Positions 12,774 through 20,769 of a DNA stretch of 21,848 nucleotides are shown piece after piece. The notes beneath the pieces were generated by a model. The model saw nothing but the letters and a program-made list of their open reading frames with translations. It made no database searches and was not told the origin of the DNA. Each line of letters starts with the position of its first letter. The first letter of the stretch is position 1. The translations under genes and the position numbers were made by a program. Source of the DNA: Myxococcota bacterium (lineage in GTDB: Bacteria; Myxococcota; JACRCW01); NCBI GenBank assembly GCA_040752415.1, contig JBFMGU010000182.1, forward strand, positions 1 through 21,848. The letters are read 5' to 3'.

Positions 12774-14213
12774 TCAGGGTGCGCGGTAGACGACCTTGAC
12801 ACTGGCCGAGGCGACGCCGGTGTTTCCGGAAAGATCACTCGCGCTGCAGCGGATGCCGGTGGTGCCCACGCGGAACAAGCTTCCCGACGCCGGAGTGCAG
12901 CTCACGGGACGTTGTCCGGCAGCCACGTCCTGCGCGCTCGCGGAGAAGGTGACAACAGCGCCGTCGGGATTGGTGGTTGTCACCTGCTTGGCCACGGAGA
13001 TCCTCACCAGCGGCGGCCGCGTGTCCTGGATGCGGACGGTGAATGACCCCGTGCCGGTGTTGCCCGCCTCGTCCGTGGCCGTGCACGCCACGTTGGTCAG
13101 CCCCAGCGCAAACAGGCTCCCCGACTCTGGCGTGCAGCTCACCACGGGTGCGGCGGTGGCGTTGTCGGAGGCGGTGACCGCGTACGTCACCACGCGGTAG
13201 CCCATGGTGCCCGCTTCCAGCGTGAGGGCTCCGGGCAGCGTGAGCACCGGCGGCGCGGTATCCCGCGACACCACGGTGGTGGTCTCCGCCATGCTCGCCG
13301 CCACGTCGTCGCAGCCGGAGTACACGGCCTGGATGGTCCAGGTTCCCAGCAGGCTCTCATCCGGAGCCCAGGTGGTGATGAAGCGACCATCTCCGTCGTT
13401 GTCGGTGTCGGTGCCCAGCGGGAGGGTGGTCTCTCCCTGCACCGCGGTGAACAGGACATCACCGACCCCCGGCCCCACCAACGGCACGCCGTCGGCGCGA
13501 ACCTCCACCTCCACCGCGGTGGCCTGGCCCACGTAGAGGAGCACCGGCGGAGCTCCCGCCGCGAAGGAGACCGCGGTGGGCACCAACGTCTCCACAGTGA
13601 GCGTGAGGGGATTGGACTGCTGCTCTCCGGCCGCACCACCGTCGCGTGGGGGCCCCCGGACCCAGGCAGCCACGGTATGCGGGCCATCCGCCAGCGCCAC
13701 CGTGCTGGTGCACCCCCAGGTGCAACCGGATGCGGGAAGCTGTGCCGTACACAGGACCGCGTCACCCTCGCGCACCTCCACCTGGTCAACAACTTCGAAC
13801 GAGCACCCGTTGCCGTAGAAGGAGGGGTAGGCCGTGTCGACGGTGCCGGTGGGACCGTCCAACCCGAACCCTGGGTGGTTTCTGCAGATGGGACACCCGG
13901 GGCAGGTCTTGCCATTCGTGCGGTACGAGGTCTCGACCACGATGAGGCAGGGGGTGGGCAGGGGGTCGCAGGGCAACGCGGGGCACTCGAAATCGCAGTA
14001 GGGGCAGCCGTAGCAGGGGCTGCCATTGACGTCGCAGGAGCCCAGCGGGTCTCTGGACTCGGGACAGAGGTCCGGGTCGAAGGGCTCGCACCCGAGCTCC
14101 CCGTCCGTGGGACAGTGATCGACTCTGTCGGGGGGGCACTCCTGGGTCTGGGCGGAAACTGGACCAACGAGGACCAACAACGTCAGGCAGGCGGGCACGA
14201 GCGACTTGGTCAT
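12774..14213 (-). CDS. Secreted protein: Cys-rich N-terminus, Ig-like domains, two C-terminal HYR domains
   Basis: Signal peptide MTKSLVPACLTLLVLVGPVSA|Q; ~90-aa Cys/Pro-rich segment; two HYR repeats (DTAPPVLTLP...SCTPESGSLFALGLTNVACTATDEAGN; DTRPP...SCTPASGSLFRVGTTGIRCSASDLSGN). Confidence 0.85.
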   Translation of the reverse strand: MTKSLVPACLTLLVLVGPVSAQTQECPPDRVDHCPTDGELGCEPFDPDLCPESRDPLGSCDVNGSPCYGCPYCDFECPALPCDPLPTPCLIVVETSYRTNGKTCPGCPICRNHPGFGLDGPTGTVDTAYPSFYGNGCSFEVVDQVEVREGDAVLCTAQLPASGCTWGCTSTVALADGPHTVAAWVRGPPRDGGAAGEQQSNPLTLTVETLVPTAVSFAAGAPPVLLYVGQATAVEVEVRADGVPLVGPGVGDVLFTAVQGETTLPLGTDTDNDGDGRFITTWAPDESLLGTWTIQAVYSGCDDVAASMAETTTVVSRDTAPPVLTLPGALTLEAGTMGYRVVTYAVTASDNATAAPVVSCTPESGSLFALGLTNVACTATDEAGNTGTGSFTVRIQDTRPPLVRISVAKQVTTTNPDGAVVTFSASAQDVAAGQRPVSCTPASGSLFRVGTTGIRCSASDLSGNTGVASASVKVVYRAP

Positions 14214-14369
14214 GCGCAACACCTTAGCGCGCCCCCGCACCCCCGTGAACGGCACTCCGCGGCGCGCAGCGGGCCCACGACGCGGTTCCGGGGCGGCTCC
14301 GGAGGAGCGTCGTCGCCGCTTCGTGCGTCGTGCGCCTATAGGCCTCTAACAACCTGACGGGAGGGCTAC

Positions 14370-15191: not shown

Positions 15192-15790
15192 GGTGCGCTG
15201 GATGTACCGTGGTCGCCGTTGCAGCGCGTTGGTGAGCTCCGCGGCCGCCTCATCCGAAAGGTCCTGGAAGGTCCGCGCAGCCCACCGCTCCCGCCATTGC
15301 TTCGGGGTGAAGCCGGGGATGGTGACTTCGAACGGCAACGGTATTCCTCGAGCGCGAAGCGCGCGTACGGCGGCCTGCACGGCGAGAAAGGACTCGTCGC
15401 ACCACTCCACGATCGCCGCGGGCAAGGGGCGGACATCGACGACCGCTTCCGAGGCTGCGGCGAGGAGAACGAGGCCGCGCATGAAGACCCCGACTTCGCC
15501 CTGCAGCTCCTTGCGCAGCCTTTCCTCATCGGTTTCGTGGATCCTCGCAAGGACGTCTTCAACGGCGGCGCCGGGGAGCGTGAAGGCGGTGGCGATCACG
15601 GGGAGCAGCGTGCGGAGCCACTCCAATCCCTCTTCGTCCACCGACGCTCTCCAATCGGTCGCGGAACGCAGGGGCTCGAGAACGTCGCGTCGGAAGGCGT
15701 TCGGGTACCATTGCAGCGTTGCTCTCAGCTGAGCGGGACCCGTTCCGCAGCGCTGGGAGACGGATCAATCGCCAAGACCGGCAGTCCCAT
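15192..15790 (-). pseudogene. Hypothetical protein upstream of the vapC remnant (candidate antitoxin), probably frameshifted near its 5' end
   Basis: The frame of ORF 15099-15641 stays open upstream (AQLRATLQWYPNAFRRDVLEPLRS...) without a start codon. ATG 15790 (MGLPVLAIDPSPSAAERV) joins it with a 1-nt shift near 15735. The 3' end runs in frame into the vapC ATG. Confidence 0.45.
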
Positions 15791-15935
15791 GTGGGGATCA
15801 TGGCGCCGGCGGAGCCGACAACCACCGTCAGTGCAGGGCACGGCACAACGGCGAATTGCCGGAGCTGGAGGCGGACCGCTTCAGTCTCCGCCTGCGCGTC
15901 TTGGGGCCGTCGCCGGGGGAACAGCCACCTGACGC

Positions 15936-16514
15936 TCAGCGTCGCACCACGCCCTGGTTGCGCAGCACGTCCTCCCACGCACGTCGGGAACCCTTCTTGG
16001 CGCGTCGGGAGGGGCCGGTGGGGAGCGCGGCCAGGACCTGCTTCGGTCGACGGGTCAGGAACGCGTGCGTCAGCGCAATGGCAAGCGCGTCGCTGGCGTC
16101 CTCCTGCGCCACCTCTCCCAGCCCCATGAGCGCCGCCACCATGGCCTGCACGCTCTCCTTGCCCGCACGACCAGTACCCGTCACCGCCAGCTTCACCTGC
16201 ATGGGGCCGTACTCGAAGACCTGGAGACCGGCCTGCGCCACCGTCACCAGCGCCGCACCACGCGCCTGACCGAGCACCAGCGCGCTGCGCGGGTTCTTGG
16301 AGTGGTACGCCGTCTCGATGCTGCACACCGACGGGCGATACGTCCCGATGACCTCACCGAGCTTGCCGGCAATGAACGTGAGCCGCGCGGGAAGTGCTTC
16401 CTCACGCGGGATGATGACGCCGTTGTCGACGTGAGCGGGCTTGCCGTCCGCCCCAGCGTCGACGACGGCCCAACCCGTCTTCAGACTGCCGGGGTCCACT
16501 CCCAGGATGCGCAT
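15936..16514 (-). CDS. ruvC: Crossover junction endodeoxyribonuclease RuvC
   Basis: MRILGVDPGS..TGW, SIETAY, LVLGQARG, VKLAVTGTGRAGKESVQAMV and EDASDALAIALTH, with the acidic catalytic residues present. Confidence 0.97.
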   Translation of the reverse strand: MRILGVDPGSLKTGWAVVDAGADGKPAHVDNGVIIPREEALPARLTFIAGKLGEVIGTYRPSVCSIETAYHSKNPRSALVLGQARGAALVTVAQAGLQVFEYGPMQVKLAVTGTGRAGKESVQAMVAALMGLGEVAQEDASDALAIALTHAFLTRRPKQVLAALPTGPSRRAKKGSRRAWEDVLRNQGVVRR

Positions 16515-19204
16515 CAGGGCGGGGGTGGCGGCGGAGGCGGCGGGGGCGGCGGCGGACCACCCGCGCGTGCACCGCGCTTCTTGCGCTTGGGCTTCTCTTC
16601 CGCCGCGGGCGTTTCCTCACCCGGAGGCGGCGGCGCCTTGGGCTTCTCTTCGACGGCAGGCTCGGGCGGCGGAGGCGGCGCGTCCATGCTGAGCTGCGCC
16701 ATCTCGCCCTTCACCACGGTGACCTTCTCCTGCACCTTGGTCTTGGTGGCCGGGTGCACCAGCTTCATGCGGTAGCGACCAGGCTTCAGCGGCAGCGGGT
16801 CCACCGGCGTCTTGAACGGCATCTTCTTGCCGTTGATGTAGATGATGGACCCCGCCGGCGCGGTCACCGCCACGGCGCCCATGCCCTTGGGGAACTTGAA
16901 CGCGGGCGCTTCGGGCGGCGCGGGCGGGGGCGGCTCCACCGGCGGCGGATCCGGCTGGGCCGGCGGAGACGGAGGCGGCGGCTCCACCGGCGGCGGCACC
17001 GCGGCCACGGCTGCTCCCGAGGAACCACCCGCGGCGGGTGCCCCCGCGCTCGTCGGCGCAGCGGCGGAAGCGGGCGCAGGTCCACCGGAGGCAGCAGGCT
17101 GCTCGGGCGGCGGAGCCGGGGTTGGAGCGGGAGCGGGCGGCGCCGTATTGACCGCCACCTCGGGAGGCTTCTCCTCCTCGCCCTGCAACATCGCCTTGCC
17201 GGGGCCCAGCACAAAGAACCAGCCCGCGGCCGCCAACACGGCCAGACCACCCACCGCCGCGACGACCTTCCCCGCGCCGCGCCTGGGTGCATCCTCCACC
17301 GGCGCCAACGACGTGGAGCTTGCCGCGGGCACCAACGACGCCGCCGGCGCCACGGCACTGGCGGGAAGTCCGCGGGGAGGCTCCAAGGCCACGGGCGTCC
17401 CGGCCAACGCGGGAGGCGGCGCGGCCTCGGTGCCCTCGAACAGCAGGTCGCCGTCCAATGGCACGGGCTGGGCGGCGGGCGGAGGCGGCACGGAGACCGG
17501 CTCCCCCGCGAAGTTGGTGGGCGCGACGGGTGCCGCCGGCGCAGCGGGCAACGACGCGAGCGTGGTGGCGTGTCGAGCTGGCGGTGGCGGGAGGGCAATG
17601 CCGCCTTCCGCCATCCCCGCCGGGGCGGGACGCGGTGGCGCGGCCGGAAGCGCAATGGCGCCGTCGGGAGCGGGCCGGGCCACGGTTCCCGGGAGCGAGA
17701 TGGCCCCGTCGGGGGCAACCTCGGGCAGCACCACGGCGTCCTCGACCTGGGACCGCGGTGCCATCACGCCGCCGCCGGGGACGGTGACCTCCTCGGAGAA
17801 GTGCAGGCCATGGCCCAGGTGCAGCCCCACGGTCGAAGGGCCGGGCGCGGGAGGCGAGGAGGCCGCCGCCGACGCACCAAAGGCGCGGTCCAGGTCCGCC
17901 GCGGGGTCGCCGCCGCTGCCAAAAGGCTCCTGGGCGCGCGCCGCGTCCGCCAGCGCCGACAACGAGAGCTCCTCCGGCGCCACCACCGGCTGCTCCACCG
18001 CGTAGGACGGCTGCGGCGCGGGAGACGGCATGGGAGATGGCGTCAACGGCGCGGGCGCGCTCAGCGTCTCCGGCGCCACCGCGGTCATCAGCATGGTGCC
18101 GGTGCGCGCGCGGGGCGGGGGCGCGTACGTGCCGGGCATGGACGCCCCGTCGCCGCCGAGGTCTCCGAGCCCACCCAGCGTGAGCGAGGGAGCCGCGGGC
18201 GGGACTTCCTCCGCCGCCGCGCCGGGGACGCCCTCAAAGGCCTGGATGATGGGCTGGGTCCAGCTGGTGCGCAGCGGGTGCCCCTCCGGCATCAGCTTGC
18301 TGAGGAAACCGGCCAGGTCCTGCGGGCTGGCAGTGAGTCGCGCCAGGTCCAGGAAGCGCTGCAGCGTGGTGCCAAAAGCCGCGGCGCTCTGGAAGCGCTC
18401 CGTGGGGTTCTTGGCCATGCCCGTGGTCAGCATGTCACCGAGGGCGGGCGGGAGCATGGGCGCCAGCTGGCGCGCGTCGGGGACCGGGGCCTCCTGGACC
18501 AGGCGCAGCGTCTCCGCGGGGCTGCCGCCGCTGTAGGGCGGTCGGCCGGTGACCAGGCGGTAGAGGATGGCGGCCGCGCTGTACACGTCGCTGCGACGAT
18601 CCGCGCCCCCACCCCGCGCCAGCTCCGGCGAGACGAACCACACCCGGCTCTCACTGCCCTCCATGGCGCGCTGTTGGATGGAAGGCGCGGCCAGGCCCAG
18701 GTCCATGATTCGGACCTCACCGTCCCAGCTCAGCCACACGCTCTCCGGCGTCAGGTCGGTGTGCAGCATGGAGAGCGGCGCGCCGGCGCCGTCGGCCGCC
18801 TCGTGGATGGCGTGGAGGCCCTTGCAGATCTCCGCCACCACGTAGACCGCCAGCGGCCCGGGAATGGGCGTGGCGGTGATGGCCGCTTCCCGCAGGAGGA
18901 CGGCCAGCGTGATGCCGGGGAACGCGGCGTAGACACCGGCCACGCCGGCGCCGTCGCTGATGGTGTCCACCACCTGCACCACGTTGTGGTGACGCACCCA
19001 GGCCGCGCGCTGGAGCTCAGCGGCGGCGTGGGCGCTGCCCGGCGGGGCGCCGGCGTGCATGACCCGTCGGACCAGCACCGGCCGGTAGCCACCGCCGGGG
19101 TTTGGCAGCGAGCAGACCAGGGTCTCCCCCGGCGCCCCCGACGGAAGGGACGCCACCACGCGCATCGCGCCGAGATCAGCCACGACGGTCTCCCGCCCCG
19201 GCAC
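16514..19204 (-). CDS. Membrane Ser/Thr kinase-like protein (probable pseudokinase) with Pro/Ala-rich linker, TM helix, PEGA-like domain and terminal poly-Pro
   Basis: Kinase-fold motifs HHNVVQVVD, HTDLTPES, DLGLA, VSPE, DRRSDVYS and P.ERF; TM segment VVAAVGGLAVLAAAGWFFVLG; PEGA-like AGSIIYINGK...TPVDPLPLKPGRYRMKL. Start uncertain (GTG 19204). Confidence 0.85.
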   Translation of the reverse strand: MPGRETVVADLGAMRVVASLPSGAPGETLVCSLPNPGGGYRPVLVRRVMHAGAPPGSAHAAAELQRAAWVRHHNVVQVVDTISDGAGVAGVYAAFPGITLAVLLREAAITATPIPGPLAVYVVAEICKGLHAIHEAADGAGAPLSMLHTDLTPESVWLSWDGEVRIMDLGLAAPSIQQRAMEGSESRVWFVSPELARGGGADRRSDVYSAAAILYRLVTGRPPYSGGSPAETLRLVQEAPVPDARQLAPMLPPALGDMLTTGMAKNPTERFQSAAAFGTTLQRFLDLARLTASPQDLAGFLSKLMPEGHPLRTSWTQPIIQAFEGVPGAAAEEVPPAAPSLTLGGLGDLGGDGASMPGTYAPPPRARTGTMLMTAVAPETLSAPAPLTPSPMPSPAPQPSYAVEQPVVAPEELSLSALADAARAQEPFGSGGDPAADLDRAFGASAAASSPPAPGPSTVGLHLGHGLHFSEEVTVPGGGVMAPRSQVEDAVVLPEVAPDGAISLPGTVARPAPDGAIALPAAPPRPAPAGMAEGGIALPPPPARHATTLASLPAAPAAPVAPTNFAGEPVSVPPPPAAQPVPLDGDLLFEGTEAAPPPALAGTPVALEPPRGLPASAVAPAASLVPAASSTSLAPVEDAPRRGAGKVVAAVGGLAVLAAAGWFFVLGPGKAMLQGEEEKPPEVAVNTAPPAPAPTPAPPPEQPAASGGPAPASAAAPTSAGAPAAGGSSGAAVAAVPPPVEPPPPSPPAQPDPPPVEPPPPAPPEAPAFKFPKGMGAVAVTAPAGSIIYINGKKMPFKTPVDPLPLKPGRYRMKLVHPATKTKVQEKVTVVKGEMAQLSMDAPPPPPEPAVEEKPKAPPPPGEETPAAEEKPKRKKRGARAGGPPPPPPPPPPPPP

Positions 19205-19212
19205 CGAGAAGG

Positions 19213-19968
19213 TCAGCCGCTTGCAAGCTGCTCCATCTCTGCGGGGTCAATGTCGAAGTTGGCGTGAACCTTCTGGACGTCATCCGATTCCTCCAGACGC
19301 TCCATCAGCTTCAACATGGTAGCGGCGTCATGGCCAGTAATTTTCACCGTGCTCTGGGGAATCTGGGTGATGTCCGCGGTGACGGCCTTCAGCCCGGCCT
19401 TCTCGAACGCGTCCTTCAGCGGACCGTAGAGCGAGGGCTCCGCCTTGACGTCAATGGTGTCGCCCGAGTCCATGACGTCCTCCGCCCCGGCCTCCAGCGC
19501 CACCTCCATCACCTTGTCCTCGTTCACCCCGTTCTTCTTCTCAAAGGAGAAGAAGGCCTTCTTGCTGAACTGCCAGGCCACCGCGCCGCTGGCGGCCATG
19601 GAGCCGCCCGTCTTGGTGAACGTGGACCGGATTTCACTGGCGGTGCGGTTCCGGTTGTCCGTGGTCACCTCCACCAGCACGGCCACGCCGGAGGGGCCGT
19701 AGCCCTCGTAGACCAGCTCCTCCAGCGACTCGCCCGCCTCCTCCCCGGTGCCCTTGCGGATGGCCCGCTCGATGTTGTCCTTGGGCATGGAGTTGGCCTT
19801 GGCCTCATCAATGGCCTTGCGCAGTCGGAAGTTGCCGGTGGGGTCGGCGCCGCCCTGGCGCACGGCAACCGTGATCTCCCGGATCAGCTTGGTCCACAGG
19901 GCGCCCTTGGCGGCATCCGCCTTGCCCTTGGTGTGCTTGATCTTGCTCCATTTGTTGTGACCGGACAT
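19213..19968 (-). CDS. yebC: YebC/PmpR (TACO1) family protein
   Basis: MSGHNKWSKIKHTKG, SMPKDNIERAI, YEGYGPSGVAVLVEVTTDNRNRT and LEESDDVQKVHANF. Confidence 0.97.
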   Translation of the reverse strand: MSGHNKWSKIKHTKGKADAAKGALWTKLIREITVAVRQGGADPTGNFRLRKAIDEAKANSMPKDNIERAIRKGTGEEAGESLEELVYEGYGPSGVAVLVEVTTDNRNRTASEIRSTFTKTGGSMAASGAVAWQFSKKAFFSFEKKNGVNEDKVMEVALEAGAEDVMDSGDTIDVKAEPSLYGPLKDAFEKAGLKAVTADITQIPQSTVKITGHDAATMLKLMERLEESDDVQKVHANFDIDPAEMEQLASG

Positions 19969-20209
19969 GGGGCCATCTCTCTTCGATGTGGGGGATCCCG
20001 GCCCAGCGGACGGGCCGCGGAGCCCCGCGCGCTATCACGCCGGGCATACCGCCAGCAAATCCACCGGTCAGGCCCGCCAGGCCCGCGCCGGTGTGACACG
20101 GCCTGATCCAGGTGTTCAGGTTGACACGCTTTTTGCGGTGCCTGGGCCTTGCACGGCGCCTTTGCACGCTTACATAGGTGCAACCGGGGGGAAGACGGAA
20201 GGCAAGGCC

Positions 20210-20659
20210 ATGAAGGACCAAAGGAATTCGACCCCGCAGCGCCCGCAGTCGCCCACAGGCGCCGTGCAGCCAGCCAAGCGGGGGTTTGCCAGAAACCCGG
20301 AGCTGGCCCGGATTGCCGGCAGGAAGGGAGGCATGAGCGTCCCGCCCTCAGAGCGTAGCTTCTCCAAGAACCCGGAGTTGGCTCGCAGCGCAGGGCGCAA
20401 GGGCGGGATGAGCGTGGCCCCTTCCGAGAGGAGCTTCTCCAAGGACCCGGCGCTGGCCCGCGACGCAGGTCGCAAGGGCGGGCGAGCGGTCCCGGCCGAG
20501 GAGCGGAGCTTCTCCAAGAACCCCCAGCTGGCCCGTGAAGCGGGGCGCAAGGGCGGCAGCAGCAACGCCGGTCGACGCGCCGCGGCTTCCCAGGCCACGC
20601 AGGGCGAAGAGAAGACCACGGAGGACACCGGTACCGAGGAGGGTCGCGGCGCGGAATGA
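20210..20659 (+). CDS. KGG-repeat general stress protein (GsiB/YciG-like)
   Basis: Four F..[ND]P.LAR.AGRKGG repeats; hydrophilic sequence; ATG 20210 after a purine-rich stretch. Confidence 0.9.
   Translation: MKDQRNSTPQRPQSPTGAVQPAKRGFARNPELARIAGRKGGMSVPPSERSFSKNPELARSAGRKGGMSVAPSERSFSKDPALARDAGRKGGRAVPAEERSFSKNPQLAREAGRKGGSSNAGRRAAASQATQGEEKTTEDTGTEEGRGAE
20285..20557 (+). repeat. Coding tandem repeat, 75-bp (25-aa) period, ~4 copies
   Basis: Units start at 20285, 20360, 20435 and 20510. Confidence 0.9.
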
Positions 20660-20769
20660 CCACGCCCCCCTGATGCCGATGGACTCCACGGCCGAAAACA
20701 AGATGGCCGCGCCTGCAGCCAGGGCGCGGCCATCTGCTTTTTTCCCGAGCTGAAGCTGGAGCGTGGGCG

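Follow-up and report, generated by a model that had tools for sequence, protein, structure and literature searches.

A gene ending in 13 proline codons overlaps the start of ruvC in a yebC-containing locus of a Myxococcota bacterium

How is a gene translated whose start codon overlaps the stop codon of a neighbor ending in an uninterrupted run of prolines? The question is raised by ruvC, a DNA-repair gene for Holliday-junction resolvase, in a 21,848-nt stretch of DNA from a Myxococcota bacterium (the window, i.e. the whole stretch that was analyzed). Here, yebC immediately precedes, in the same orientation, a long gene with a terminal polyproline tract (the tailed gene), which is followed by ruvC. 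The original prediction for this locus held that ruvC may rely on re-initiation by ribosomes that have cleared the tract, so that RuvC output would be tied to YebC and EF-P activity. Its biological premise, polyproline stalling with relief by YebC and EF-P, is in print: YebC-family proteins were described to relieve such stalls, an E. coli-type YebC rescued stalled ribosomes in vitro, and deletion of yebC was not possible in an efp mutant of Salmonella (PMC13602936). The locus comprises the following features.

19213..19968, minus strand: yebC, 251 aa (Pfam TACO1_YebC_N, 116.8 bits, and Transcrip_reg, 183.9 bits; NCBIfam NF001030, 321 bits)
19190..19194, minus strand: Shine-Dalgarno-like GGGAG, read from the sequence, 6 nt upstream of GTG 19183, the probable start of the tailed gene
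16514..19183, minus strand: tailed gene (kinase-like domain, putative membrane helix, PEGA domain, polyproline end), 889 aa from GTG 19183
16517..16555, minus strand: terminal tract of 13 proline codons, from sequence and translation, with the basic patch KRKKRGARAGG before it
16512..16516, minus strand: TGATG stop-start overlap, from sequence and ORF coordinates
15936..16514, minus strand: ruvC, 192 aa (Pfam RuvC, 144.5 bits; NCBIfam TIGR00228, 131 bits)

In the minus-strand sequence and its translation, the 13 proline codons occupy positions 16555-16517 after GGT GGT, in the order CCG CCG CCG CCC CCG CCG CCT CCG CCG CCA CCC CCG CCC (8 CCG, 3 CCC, 1 CCT, and 1 CCA). The TGA of the tailed gene (16516-16514) directly follows the 13th codon and, as originally described, shares one base with the ruvC ATG (16514-16512) in a TGATG at 16516-16512; the two co-directional genes thus overlap by 1 nt. 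The start of ruvC is unambiguous, since no other start codon stands between the preceding stop in the ruvC frame and this ATG, and the match to the Pfam RuvC model begins at residue 3. The 17 nt at positions −20 to −4 from the ATG (CCGCCGCCACCCCCGCC) include four purines. None of the motifs GGAG, GAGG, AGGA, and AAGG was detected at −20 to −4 in the window or in the two other full-length orthologous loci, which bears out the claim that ruvC is devoid of a Shine-Dalgarno (SD) sequence. The mixture of proline codons, which had been taken to speak against a simple slippage repeat, is likewise real, but it is typical of long proline runs in this genome: CCA and CCT make up 36% of the codons in its other runs of at least eight prolines, versus 11% overall.

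The tract is not a product of chance, because a 13-proline run would be expected about 1e-9 times per proteome by independent draws (our own arithmetic) and only four of the genome's 2,546 runs of at least three prolines reach this length. Proline accounts for 216,540 of the 3,269,834 residues in this proteome. Among the 78 runs of at least six prolines, the window's tract alone ends at a true stop codon, the other apparent case being a contig end; the other long runs of the genome, where placeable, are internal. The remainder of the tailed gene had been said to hold many more PPP motifs, and our count for the gene is 12 runs of at least three prolines, which comprise 29 PPP triplets. This places it third in PPP load among 7,683 coding-like ORFs, 1,723 of which contain PPP; the ORF calls underlying these counts, i.e. 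stop-to-stop ORFs of 100 codons or more that passed a GC3 filter, are heuristic, as are the start choices. Potential rescue factors are encoded in the same genome, i.e. two EF-P-family genes and one YebC, the single family match being the window's own yebC. Its product belongs to the same type as E. coli YebC: among solved chains, 1lfp (232.8 bits) and 1kon, which is E. coli YebC (223.6 bits), are closest, compared with 113.7 bits for HP0162 and 112.5 bits for TACO1.

Conservation in relatives had been named as the way to check the arrangement. The order yebC, tailed gene, ruvC was found in all three full-length orthologous loci (the window, locus L031 of genome G001, and the metagenome locus L038), and with it the terminal polyproline and the stop-start overlap without SD. 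The run consists of 13 prolines in the window, 16 in L031, and 13 in L038. The junction sequences differ (TGATG, GTGA+ACC, and GTGA+AACACG, respectively), the overlap being of the 4-nt type (GTGA) in L031 and L038, and in all three loci the ruvC frame offers no start codon ahead of the overlapping one. Furthermore, a fourth orthologue (P0147), represented by a C-terminal fragment of 140 aa, ends in a basic patch and 10 prolines. In pairwise comparisons of the run between orthologues, 0 of 26 first and second codon positions differed, versus 9, 10, and 6 of 13 third positions, a pattern indicating that proline identity is under selection; these conservation counts are few and non-independent, coming from three full loci and fragments that are all related. 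A terminal proline run occurred in 0 of 16 distant kinase homologues and in 0 of 149 other best representatives. In every orthologue, the last proline of the tail is immediately followed by the stop codon, as a gating role would likewise predict.

Across the orthologues, the product of the tailed gene is conserved, has several domains, and measures 737-889 aa; the gene thus does not have the form of a short leader ORF or of an arrest module dedicated to a specific signal. Its longest ORF extends from GTG 19204 (896 aa), but alignment with the orthologues and the placement of GGGAG make GTG 19183 the likely start. SD sequences precede the tailed gene in all three loci (GGGAG, GGAGG, and GGGAG), the latter two in front of the ATG starts of the orthologues. 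Three domains or segments were distinguished.

18386..19141, minus strand: Hanks-type kinase-like domain (Pfam Pkinase, 70 bits with a cut-off of 31.7; PK_Tyr_Ser-Thr, 48.5 bits)
17204..17266, minus strand: single hydrophobic segment VVAAVGGLAVLAAAGWFFVLG, a putative membrane helix, read from the translation and orthologue comparison
16688..16864, minus strand: PEGA domain, a beta-sandwich with a predicted extracytoplasmic location (Pfam PF08308, 23.4 bits with a cut-off of 20.8)

The order kinase, linker, helix, PEGA is that of Hanks-type Ser/Thr kinases with a C-terminal PEGA domain (P0008, P0014, and P0015), although the terminal proline run is absent from these distant homologues and the window's protein has replaced the Lys and Asn of the catalytic loop. 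When aligned to PknB, it shows HTDLTPES in place of HRDVKPAN and DLG in place of DFG, and the HRDxKxxN loop and the DFG motif are absent from its kinase-like domain. HTD and DLG are common to both orthologues, whose loops (HTDLTPDS and HTDVNPDS) carry neither this Lys nor this Asn. Because of these replacements the domain is probably catalytically inactive; the PknB alignment left out the N-lobe, hence the beta-3 Lys. The hydrophobic segment is preceded by basic and followed by acidic residues. According to the positive-inside rule, which we applied instead of a prediction tool, the kinase-like domain would thus face the cytoplasm and the PEGA domain, which is kept in the orthologues, the outside.

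A tail of the same kind was found in an unrelated, apparently secreted family of the same lineage (G001:C51, with a 54% identical orthologue on G000:C52). These proteins are Gly-rich toward the end and terminate in a Gly run plus 15 prolines or in at least 13 prolines; two further members (P0023 and P0024) end in 10 prolines. The N-terminus of this family resembles a signal peptide, and its CarboxypepD_reg-like matches are weak and below threshold. In G001:C51, the next gene starts 40 nt further on and has its own GGAG. Since an unrelated family possesses an equal tail next to an uncoupled gene, the tail need not be retained for the sake of ruvC, and a protein-level reason for such tails would exist in this lineage. 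One conceivable reason is an end-of-gene pause that serves export or folding of the protein's own PEGA/beta-sandwich part, any effect on ruvC being incidental. Both tailed families are apparently exported (one by membrane helix and PEGA domain, the other by its N-terminus), but a general role of this kind sits poorly with the internal position of the genome's other placeable long proline runs, and the idea is pure inference; we consider it very improbable.

The neighborhood of ruvC in other members of the phylum bears on the role of yebC. In 20 of 28 other loci, yebC was located directly upstream of ruvC, within 90 nt, and in 7 of these 20 the two genes overlapped at stop and start (−4 or −1). 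A yebC-ruvC operon has been reported for about half of the RuvC-bearing bacteria (Zhang, Lin and Gao 2012; PMC3403352). As in that operon, the window's yebC is upstream of ruvC on the same strand, but a 2.7-kb gene for a putative membrane protein separates the two, and ruvA and ruvB do not follow (ruvB was found apart from ruvC, on contig C37). This insertion was encountered only within the window's family and on one metagenome contig. The frequent direct adjacency, often with overlap, indicates that the yebC link and the coupling are ancestral and that the tailed gene is a lineage-specific insertion. The yebC linkage thus carries no information specific to polyproline, and this part of the original interpretation is not supported.

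How ribosomes reach ruvC was assessed against other overlapping genes. Overlapping pairs have been described as coupled by termination-reinitiation (Huber et al. 2019; PMC6728339); in that work, removal of the SD reduced re-initiation by 60-90% in three of five E. coli pairs, and the overlapping E. coli pair bioBF displayed de novo initiation despite a weak SD. Within the window's own genome, an SD-like 4-mer was present in 326 of 569 overlap pairs (approximate pairs), versus a background of 23%, and missing in the other 243. SD-less overlaps are thus common, and a missing SD alone is no proof of strict coupling. A region at −20 to −4 with five or fewer purines, as in ruvC, occurred in 17 of the 569 pairs. 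RNA at the junction was no more structured than shuffled sequences in the three orthologues (z = +0.71, +0.52, and +1.35), and no helix was common to the minimum-free-energy folds of the three junctions. Promoter and terminator scans remained at chance level: there were 0 promoter-like sites on either strand of 15300-20400, with 0.1 expected, a scan that is uninformative at 69% GC.

Possibly, ruvC is expressed independently of its neighbor, either from a promoter within the 3′ end of the tailed gene (the mRNA then possibly having a short leader or none) or by de novo initiation without an SD on the unstructured, C-rich stretch; the overlap would then reflect gene packing only. The unstructured junction favors free access to the start, and the many SD-less pairs as well as the bioBF precedent are consistent with this route. 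It would leave unexplained, however, why the overlap was maintained through three different junction sequences, and the overlaps of yebC with ruvC elsewhere in the phylum suggest an old reliance on upstream translation. In addition, ribosomes paused on the last proline codons would cover the ruvC start, and the empty promoter scan, a weak test, points in the same direction. Independent expression is thus unlikely in our judgement. Termination-reinitiation is the most likely route, because the start overlaps the stop in an unstructured, C-rich stretch without SD; in this respect the original interpretation stands, re-initiation being the most economical way to ruvC. The junction resembles the published termination-reinitiation pairs (PMC6728339) in its overlap types (−1 in the window, −4 in the orthologues), in the co-directional genes, in a downstream start that is first in frame, and in an overlap kept across orthologues. 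It differs in that most of those pairs carry an SD within the upstream gene, which 13-16 CCN codons preclude here, and in that the upstream ORF ends in a strong stall or slow-release sequence; dependence of ruvC on it is putative.

Taken as a whole, the account that we favor, with a confidence only slightly above even, combines ordinary termination-reinitiation with a tail that is a feature of the protein, its effect on RuvC being secondary. In a small, uncultured, Myxococcota-like lineage, a gene would have been inserted into an ancestral, tightly packed yebC-ruvC pair, in which ruvC would have been coupled to yebC in like manner. Its product would be a membrane protein with a kinase-like (probably inactive) domain inside, one helix, and, outside the cell, the PEGA domain followed by the basic patch and 13-16 prolines. 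The proline run would be the real C-terminal tail of this protein, kept by selection on the protein. RuvC would be made by ribosomes that finish the tailed gene on a presumed common transcript and restart on the spot. Before doing so, they would have to pass 29 PPP triplets, the 13-proline run, and Pro-UGA termination, and since they arrive only by this path, RuvC output would be low and dependent on EF-P and YebC. Such dependence is probably a side effect of the arrangement, not its purpose. A C-terminal proline is reported to slow release, a step not promoted by EF-P (PMC7246954, citing Hayes 2002 and Pierson 2016).

A different reading of the same sequences is that the terminal polyproline was selected as a translational gate, EF-P and the operon's YebC clearing the tract before re-initiation at ruvC by design. 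The exact end of the tail at the ruvC-overlapping stop in three of three loci, although the junction sequence was rebuilt each time, fits this idea, as does the impossibility of an SD inside CCN codons, which leaves ruvC with no other obvious ribosome entry. The third most PPP-rich ORF of the genome adjoins its only yebC, and the in vitro rescue and the Salmonella result mentioned above would supply the activity needed. The principle also works in a synthetic dual reporter, where a polyproline motif in the upstream gene was read through a weakly coupled cat in an efp mutant (bioRxiv 10.1101/2024.08.03.606492). The likeness lies in an upstream proline-run stall read through a coupled downstream gene; that reporter, however, is engineered, has its motif inside a fluorophore gene and not at the stop, and was used in E. 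coli efp mutants. Moreover, the ancestral and widespread yebC-ruvC adjacency needs no polyproline logic, YebC acts in trans and would gain no mechanistic advantage from operon membership, EF-P was reported not to speed release at a C-terminal proline (PMC7246954), and the same Gly-rich and polyproline tail occurs on an unrelated secreted protein without a coupled downstream gene. We regard a gate operated by EF-P and the operon's YebC as distinctly unlikely. That RuvC would come only from ribosomes past 13-16 prolines and the overlapping Pro-UGA stop, with supply set by EF-P and YebC through selection, appears quite doubtful. If true, it would be the first natural case in which the polyproline end of a full-size gene meters a coupled downstream gene.

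One coincidence is left unexplained by a side effect: a gene of this PPP rank (third of 7,683) stands beside the only yebC, and it does so in all three genomes. Among known systems, TnaC provides a Pro-UGA arrest that controls downstream genes; this leader peptide, which is short and dedicated to the task, responds to tryptophan and works by way of Rho. The ruvC junction shares with TnaC a peptidyl-tRNA ending in proline at a UGA stop beside downstream genes, but the upstream ORF encodes a protein of full size, nothing points to a ligand, and the junctions revealed no conserved RNA structure. The RNA remodelling of arrest peptides of the SecM, MifM, TnaC, or ErmCL type found no counterpart at the three junctions, whose folds were no more stable than shuffles and had no shared helix.

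With the stall motifs addressed by EF-P, YebC/YebC2, and YfmR/Uup (PMC13602936, PMC12234827, and PMC11990639), the tract has in common consecutive proline codons (at least three, as in such motifs) and the presence of YebC and EF-P as encoded rescue factors. The natural targets known from these reports are short and internal, e.g. the PPP of ValS, whereas here a 13-residue C-terminal run abuts the start of another gene; stalling at this run is predicted.

If RuvC synthesis depends on finishing the 13-proline run, the locus would offer a clean natural test case for the transmission of a stall to a coupled neighbor. In the literature found, stalling or slow release at a gene end that is passed on to a coupled neighbor has been exploited only in the engineered reporter. 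Set against this significance, the yebC link is inherited, the coupling ordinary, and the organisms uncultured. That the Gly-rich and polyproline tail recurs in two unrelated, exported proteins suggests that the envelope proteins of these uncultured bacteria include an as yet undescribed C-terminal module. For the organism itself, the arrangement, if true, would make RuvC output a physiological read-out of how active YebC and EF-P are in a high-GC proteome rich in proline.

The window, an entire 21.8-kb contig (C93) of a genome with 11.0 Mb, 520 contigs and 68.9% GC, carries yebC, a long open reading frame (ORF) and ruvC head to tail on its minus strand. The features concerned are as follows.

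19213-19968, minus strand: yebC, 251 aa, with both TACO1/YebC Pfam domains
16514-19204, minus strand: long ORF (tailed gene), from the ORF call and its translation
15936-16514, minus strand: ruvC, 192 aa, Pfam RuvC match of 144.5 bits with the model beginning at residue 3
16555-16517, minus strand: 13 terminal Pro codons (8 CCG, 3 CCC, 1 CCT and 1 CCA)

Translation of the long ORF ends with KRKKRGARAGG, 13 prolines and TGA, and this stop codon and the ruvC ATG have their A in common. When the sequence was read directly, the 13 Pro codons before a TGA overlapping the ruvC start were exact to the base. The observation behind the original prediction was thereby confirmed; its interpretation, i.e. 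re-initiation on ruvC tied to YebC and EF-P, stood only in part. Elsewhere on the contig, no ORF in the ~800 nt upstream of yebC (19969-20769) shows a GC3 pattern that is clearly coding, and 20170-20733 on the minus strand comes closest (GC3 0.79); this region may be a long leader/promoter region or a poorly scoring gene. A 493-aa ORF at 12774-14255 (minus strand) with two HYR domain matches and bacterial Ig-like domains probably encodes a surface protein unrelated to the poly-Pro finding.

The tailed protein matched a Pfam kinase domain (70 bits) and, near its end, PEGA (23.4 bits, cut-off 20.8). Between the two lie a long Pro/Ala-rich linker and a single hydrophobic segment (VVAAVGGLAVLAAAGWFFVLG), with basic residues before and acidic residues after it. 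Judging from this sequence, the kinase-like part would be cytoplasmic, with the PEGA domain and the tail outside. In the alignment with PknB, the catalytic loop reads HTDLTPES for HRDVKPAN, and DLG for DFG. Both orthologues of the protein retain HTD and DLG, and their loops (HTDLTPDS and HTDVNPDS) are devoid of Lys and Asn; the domain (18386-19141, minus strand) is probably a pseudokinase. The true start of the tailed gene is probably GTG 19183 rather than 19204. GGGAG lies 6 nt ahead of this codon, whose position in the alignment matches the ATG starts of both orthologues, themselves preceded by GGAGG and GGGAG. The tailed gene, 29 nt downstream of the yebC stop, is thus equipped with an ordinary ribosome-binding site. 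In contrast, ruvC has none: no Shine-Dalgarno (SD)-like 4-mer was found at -20 to -4 of its start in any of the three loci, as originally noted for the window.

Coding-like ORFs of the window's genome were collected heuristically, using a GC3 filter on stop-to-stop frames of at least 100 codons rather than a gene caller. The resulting 7,683 ORFs contained 2,546 Pro runs of at least 3 residues, 78 of at least 6, and 4 of at least 13. Only two runs of at least 6 Pro apparently ended at an ORF end, one of them at a contig end and not at a stop, so that the window's tract was the sole long Pro run in this set ending at a true stop codon. With 29 PPP triplets, the tailed gene ranked third among the 7,683 ORFs. 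Its mixed codon usage does not mark the tail as special and was ruled out as a distinguishing feature: the share of CCA plus CCT is 36% in the other runs of at least 8 Pro, compared to 11% genome-wide and 2 of 13 in the tail. Three contigs of this genome (C52, C324 and C55) break inside or directly after runs of 13, 14 and 9 Pro, respectively. Long poly-Pro tracts thus seem to be assembly breakpoints, so that the numbers of long Pro runs given for this genome are lower bounds. The ORF at the end of C324 encodes a Ser/Thr kinase with Pro runs of 14, 13, 10 and 9 and an intact-looking catalytic loop (HRDISPQN, DFG); its 54 PPP triplets are the highest PPP load of the genome.

Only one genome of the same family (G001) and two of the same class were among the 40 relatives offered for comparison, i.e. 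the lineage is sparsely sampled. The RuvC of G001 is 72% identical to that of the window, and its locus (L031) includes two corresponding upstream genes.

L031 4764-5522: yebC of G001
L031 2416-4737: tailed-gene orthologue of G001, 773 aa, ending with RRRRGAG and 16 Pro

The ruvC gene of L031 has a GTG start that overlaps the stop as GTGA. No close relative beyond G001 was detected when all GTDB species were scanned. A metagenome scan yielded one relative, L038, with yebC, a tailed orthologue of 737 aa (ending with KRKKTAEGA and 13 Pro) and a ruvC whose GTG start overlaps the stop; its RuvC and YebC are 70% and 77% identical to those of the window. A word-indexed protein search with the tailed protein returned no close orthologue, and its top match (36% identity) was to the kinase domain. 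In an exhaustive profile search covering 1.84 billion representatives, orthologues were recovered only as two fragments, P0031 and P0147, the latter being a C-terminal piece of 140 aa with a basic patch and 10 Pro at its end. The terminal Pro run was absent from the other 149 best matches of this search as well as from 16 distant kinase homologues returned by the word-indexed search.

Gene order, tail and overlap were kept in all three full loci, as was the linkage to yebC, so that the arrangement first described for the window holds in its relatives, within a sample of few loci that are all related. The junction reads CCC-TGATG-CGC in the window; in the other two loci it reads CCG-TGA with a GTG start, followed by ACC in one and AAC ACG in the other. 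Pairwise comparison of the last 13 Pro codons revealed changes at 9, 10 and 6 of 13 third positions, and at none of the 26 first and second positions in any pair. The residues directly before the Pro run vary in sequence and length among the orthologues. Purifying selection acts on the run itself, to keep its prolines or at any rate CCN.

In each of the three loci, the ruvC frame offers no start codon earlier than the overlapping one, which is followed within 1-3 codons by the conserved RILGVDPGS. Among 569 approximate overlap pairs from the window's genome, an SD-like 4-mer was present in 326 (57%, compared to 23% at random in-frame positions). As the remaining 243 of the 569 have none, the lack of an SD at an overlap is by itself nothing unusual. 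Purines occupy 4 of 17 positions at the ruvC junction, and five or fewer were found in only 17 of the 569 pairs. Possibly, ruvC is expressed independently of its neighbour, from a promoter inside the upstream gene, as a leaderless mRNA or by de novo initiation that needs no SD, which we regard as unlikely but worth keeping in mind. Scans of 15300-20400 were uninformative in this respect, with no promoter-like site at this GC content (0.1 expected) and three terminator-like sites (2.5 expected). Junction RNA of the three orthologues folded no better than shuffles (z = +0.71, +0.52 and +1.35); a ruvC start masked within a hairpin is thus without support and was dropped. A -1 frameshift in the tract, which would fuse the tailed protein to RuvC, was also set aside, because the same frame relation exists at every ATGA/TGATG overlap and the predicted location of the tail is extracytoplasmic.

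The linkage to yebC extends well beyond the family. A phylum-wide tally of ruvC gave 295 matches, with the unpublished genome G195 among its sources; no claim made here depends on that genome, and the synteny counts are those of 28 loci. In these 28 ruvC loci, all from other families of the phylum, yebC was located within 1.5 kb upstream of ruvC in 21, and ended at most 90 nt from the ruvC start in 20 of those 21; both same-class genomes were among the loci with yebC close upstream. A stop-start overlap of -4 or -1 between yebC and ruvC was called by the junction script, whose start choice is heuristic, in 7 of the 20. According to a survey, about half of the bacteria that possess RuvC have yebC and ruvC in one operon (PMC3403352). 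Among the exceptions, ~700 nt separate yebC and ruvC in one locus (L014, genome G037), and in another (L021, genome G027) a long ORF without a yebC match shares 1 nt with ruvC; neither of the ORFs upstream of ruvC has terminal prolines. The yebC linkage is therefore ancestral, and so, presumably, is a reliance of ruvC on translation of the gene before it. The tailed gene is an insertion into the yebC-ruvC pair that has so far turned up in this family-level lineage alone. Although the linkage is kept in all three tailed loci, its ancestral nature (20 of 28 other loci) means that it is no evidence for a poly-Pro logic. Still, in all three loci the genome's only yebC is followed by one of the most stall-prone genes of the genome, a coincidence that counts in favour of a terminal poly-Pro purpose-built for ruvC control. 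By its scores, the window's YebC belongs to the E. coli YebC type (223.6 bits to 1kon compared to 112-114 bits to HP0162 and TACO1), and the genome has two EF-P-family genes. As summarized in a 2026 review (PMC13602936), E. coli YebC relieves stalls in vitro, and yebC is not deletable in a Salmonella efp mutant.

Prolines before a stop were also found away from ruvC. Searching 151 genomes of the phylum for (CCN)10-TGA gave 8 matches, compared to 9 for the reversed control. With the two ruvC loci set aside, a single match fell within a long coding-like frame. A terminal poly-Pro at the stop is therefore no general motif of the phylum. The single extra match, on contig C51 of G001, belongs to a second tailed family.

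L044 718-1533, plus strand: second-family protein of G001 (C51), 271 aa, ending with GGGGGGA and 15 Pro before TGA

This protein is unrelated to the kinase/PEGA tailed protein; it has a signal-peptide-like N-terminus and weak, below-threshold CarboxypepD_reg-like beta-sandwich matches. Its orthologue in the window's genome (54% identical, C52) reaches the contig end after GGGGA and 13 Pro. Two database members of the family (P0023 and P0024) have 10 Pro at the end, but on contigs of ~1 kb, so that the sequences may simply stop where the contig does. The next gene in G001 begins 40 nt past the stop and carries GGAG 6 nt ahead of its ATG, i.e. there is no overlap and no need for coupling. A Gly-rich and poly-Pro C-terminus hence recurs on apparently exported beta-sandwich proteins, independently of ruvC, and may represent a C-terminal module of this lineage's envelope proteins that has so far gone undescribed. 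Mainly because of this second family, we rank the tail as a feature of the protein above a gate selected for ruvC control, as proposed in the original prediction; with such ends recurring away from ruvC, and with the yebC link ancestral, a gate of this kind is doubtful. A pause at the tail for the biogenesis of the exported protein itself would be highly improbable.

Most likely, ruvC is translated by ordinary termination-reinitiation. Anatomy, conservation, missing SD, ancestral coupling context and second tailed family were directly observed, and the course of events is inferred. The three genes would be co-transcribed. Ribosomes would start at the SD of the tailed gene and then traverse its PPP triplets and the 13-Pro run, a passage expected to be slow without EF-P or YebC. 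Termination at Pro-UGA would likewise be slow, and part of the terminating ribosomes would re-initiate at the overlapping AUG. The cell would be expected to make little RuvC, in amounts that depend on EF-P and YebC. In E. coli, RuvC is a low-abundance protein, which would fit such a low output. After a C-terminal Pro, release reportedly proceeds slowly and gains nothing from EF-P (PMC7246954, citing Hayes 2002 and Pierson 2016). Termination-reinitiation at stop-start overlaps is established, and removal of the SD cut re-initiation by 60-90% in three of five E. coli pairs (PMC6728339). In a synthetic reporter with weak coupling, a poly-Pro motif of the upstream gene was read via downstream cat in an efp mutant (bioRxiv 10.1101/2024.08.03.606492).

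The individual parts of this arrangement are known, namely overlap coupling, poly-Pro stalling, YebC together with EF-P, and yebC-ruvC synteny. Judged from titles, abstract openings and some passages, the papers surveyed on polyproline, translational coupling, EF-P and bacterial C-terminal poly-Pro tails did not describe a natural, conserved 13-16-Pro end of a full-size gene whose stop overlaps an SD-less ruvC start. Among the papers listed on C-terminal poly-Pro tails, which were eukaryotic, viral, peptide-biophysics and bacterial-effector studies, none dealt with a bacterial envelope protein ending in such a tail. With its weight reduced by the ancestral yebC link, the second tailed family and the tiny sample of related loci, the locus would constitute a natural test case for how stalling at the end of one gene passes to the gene coupled to it.
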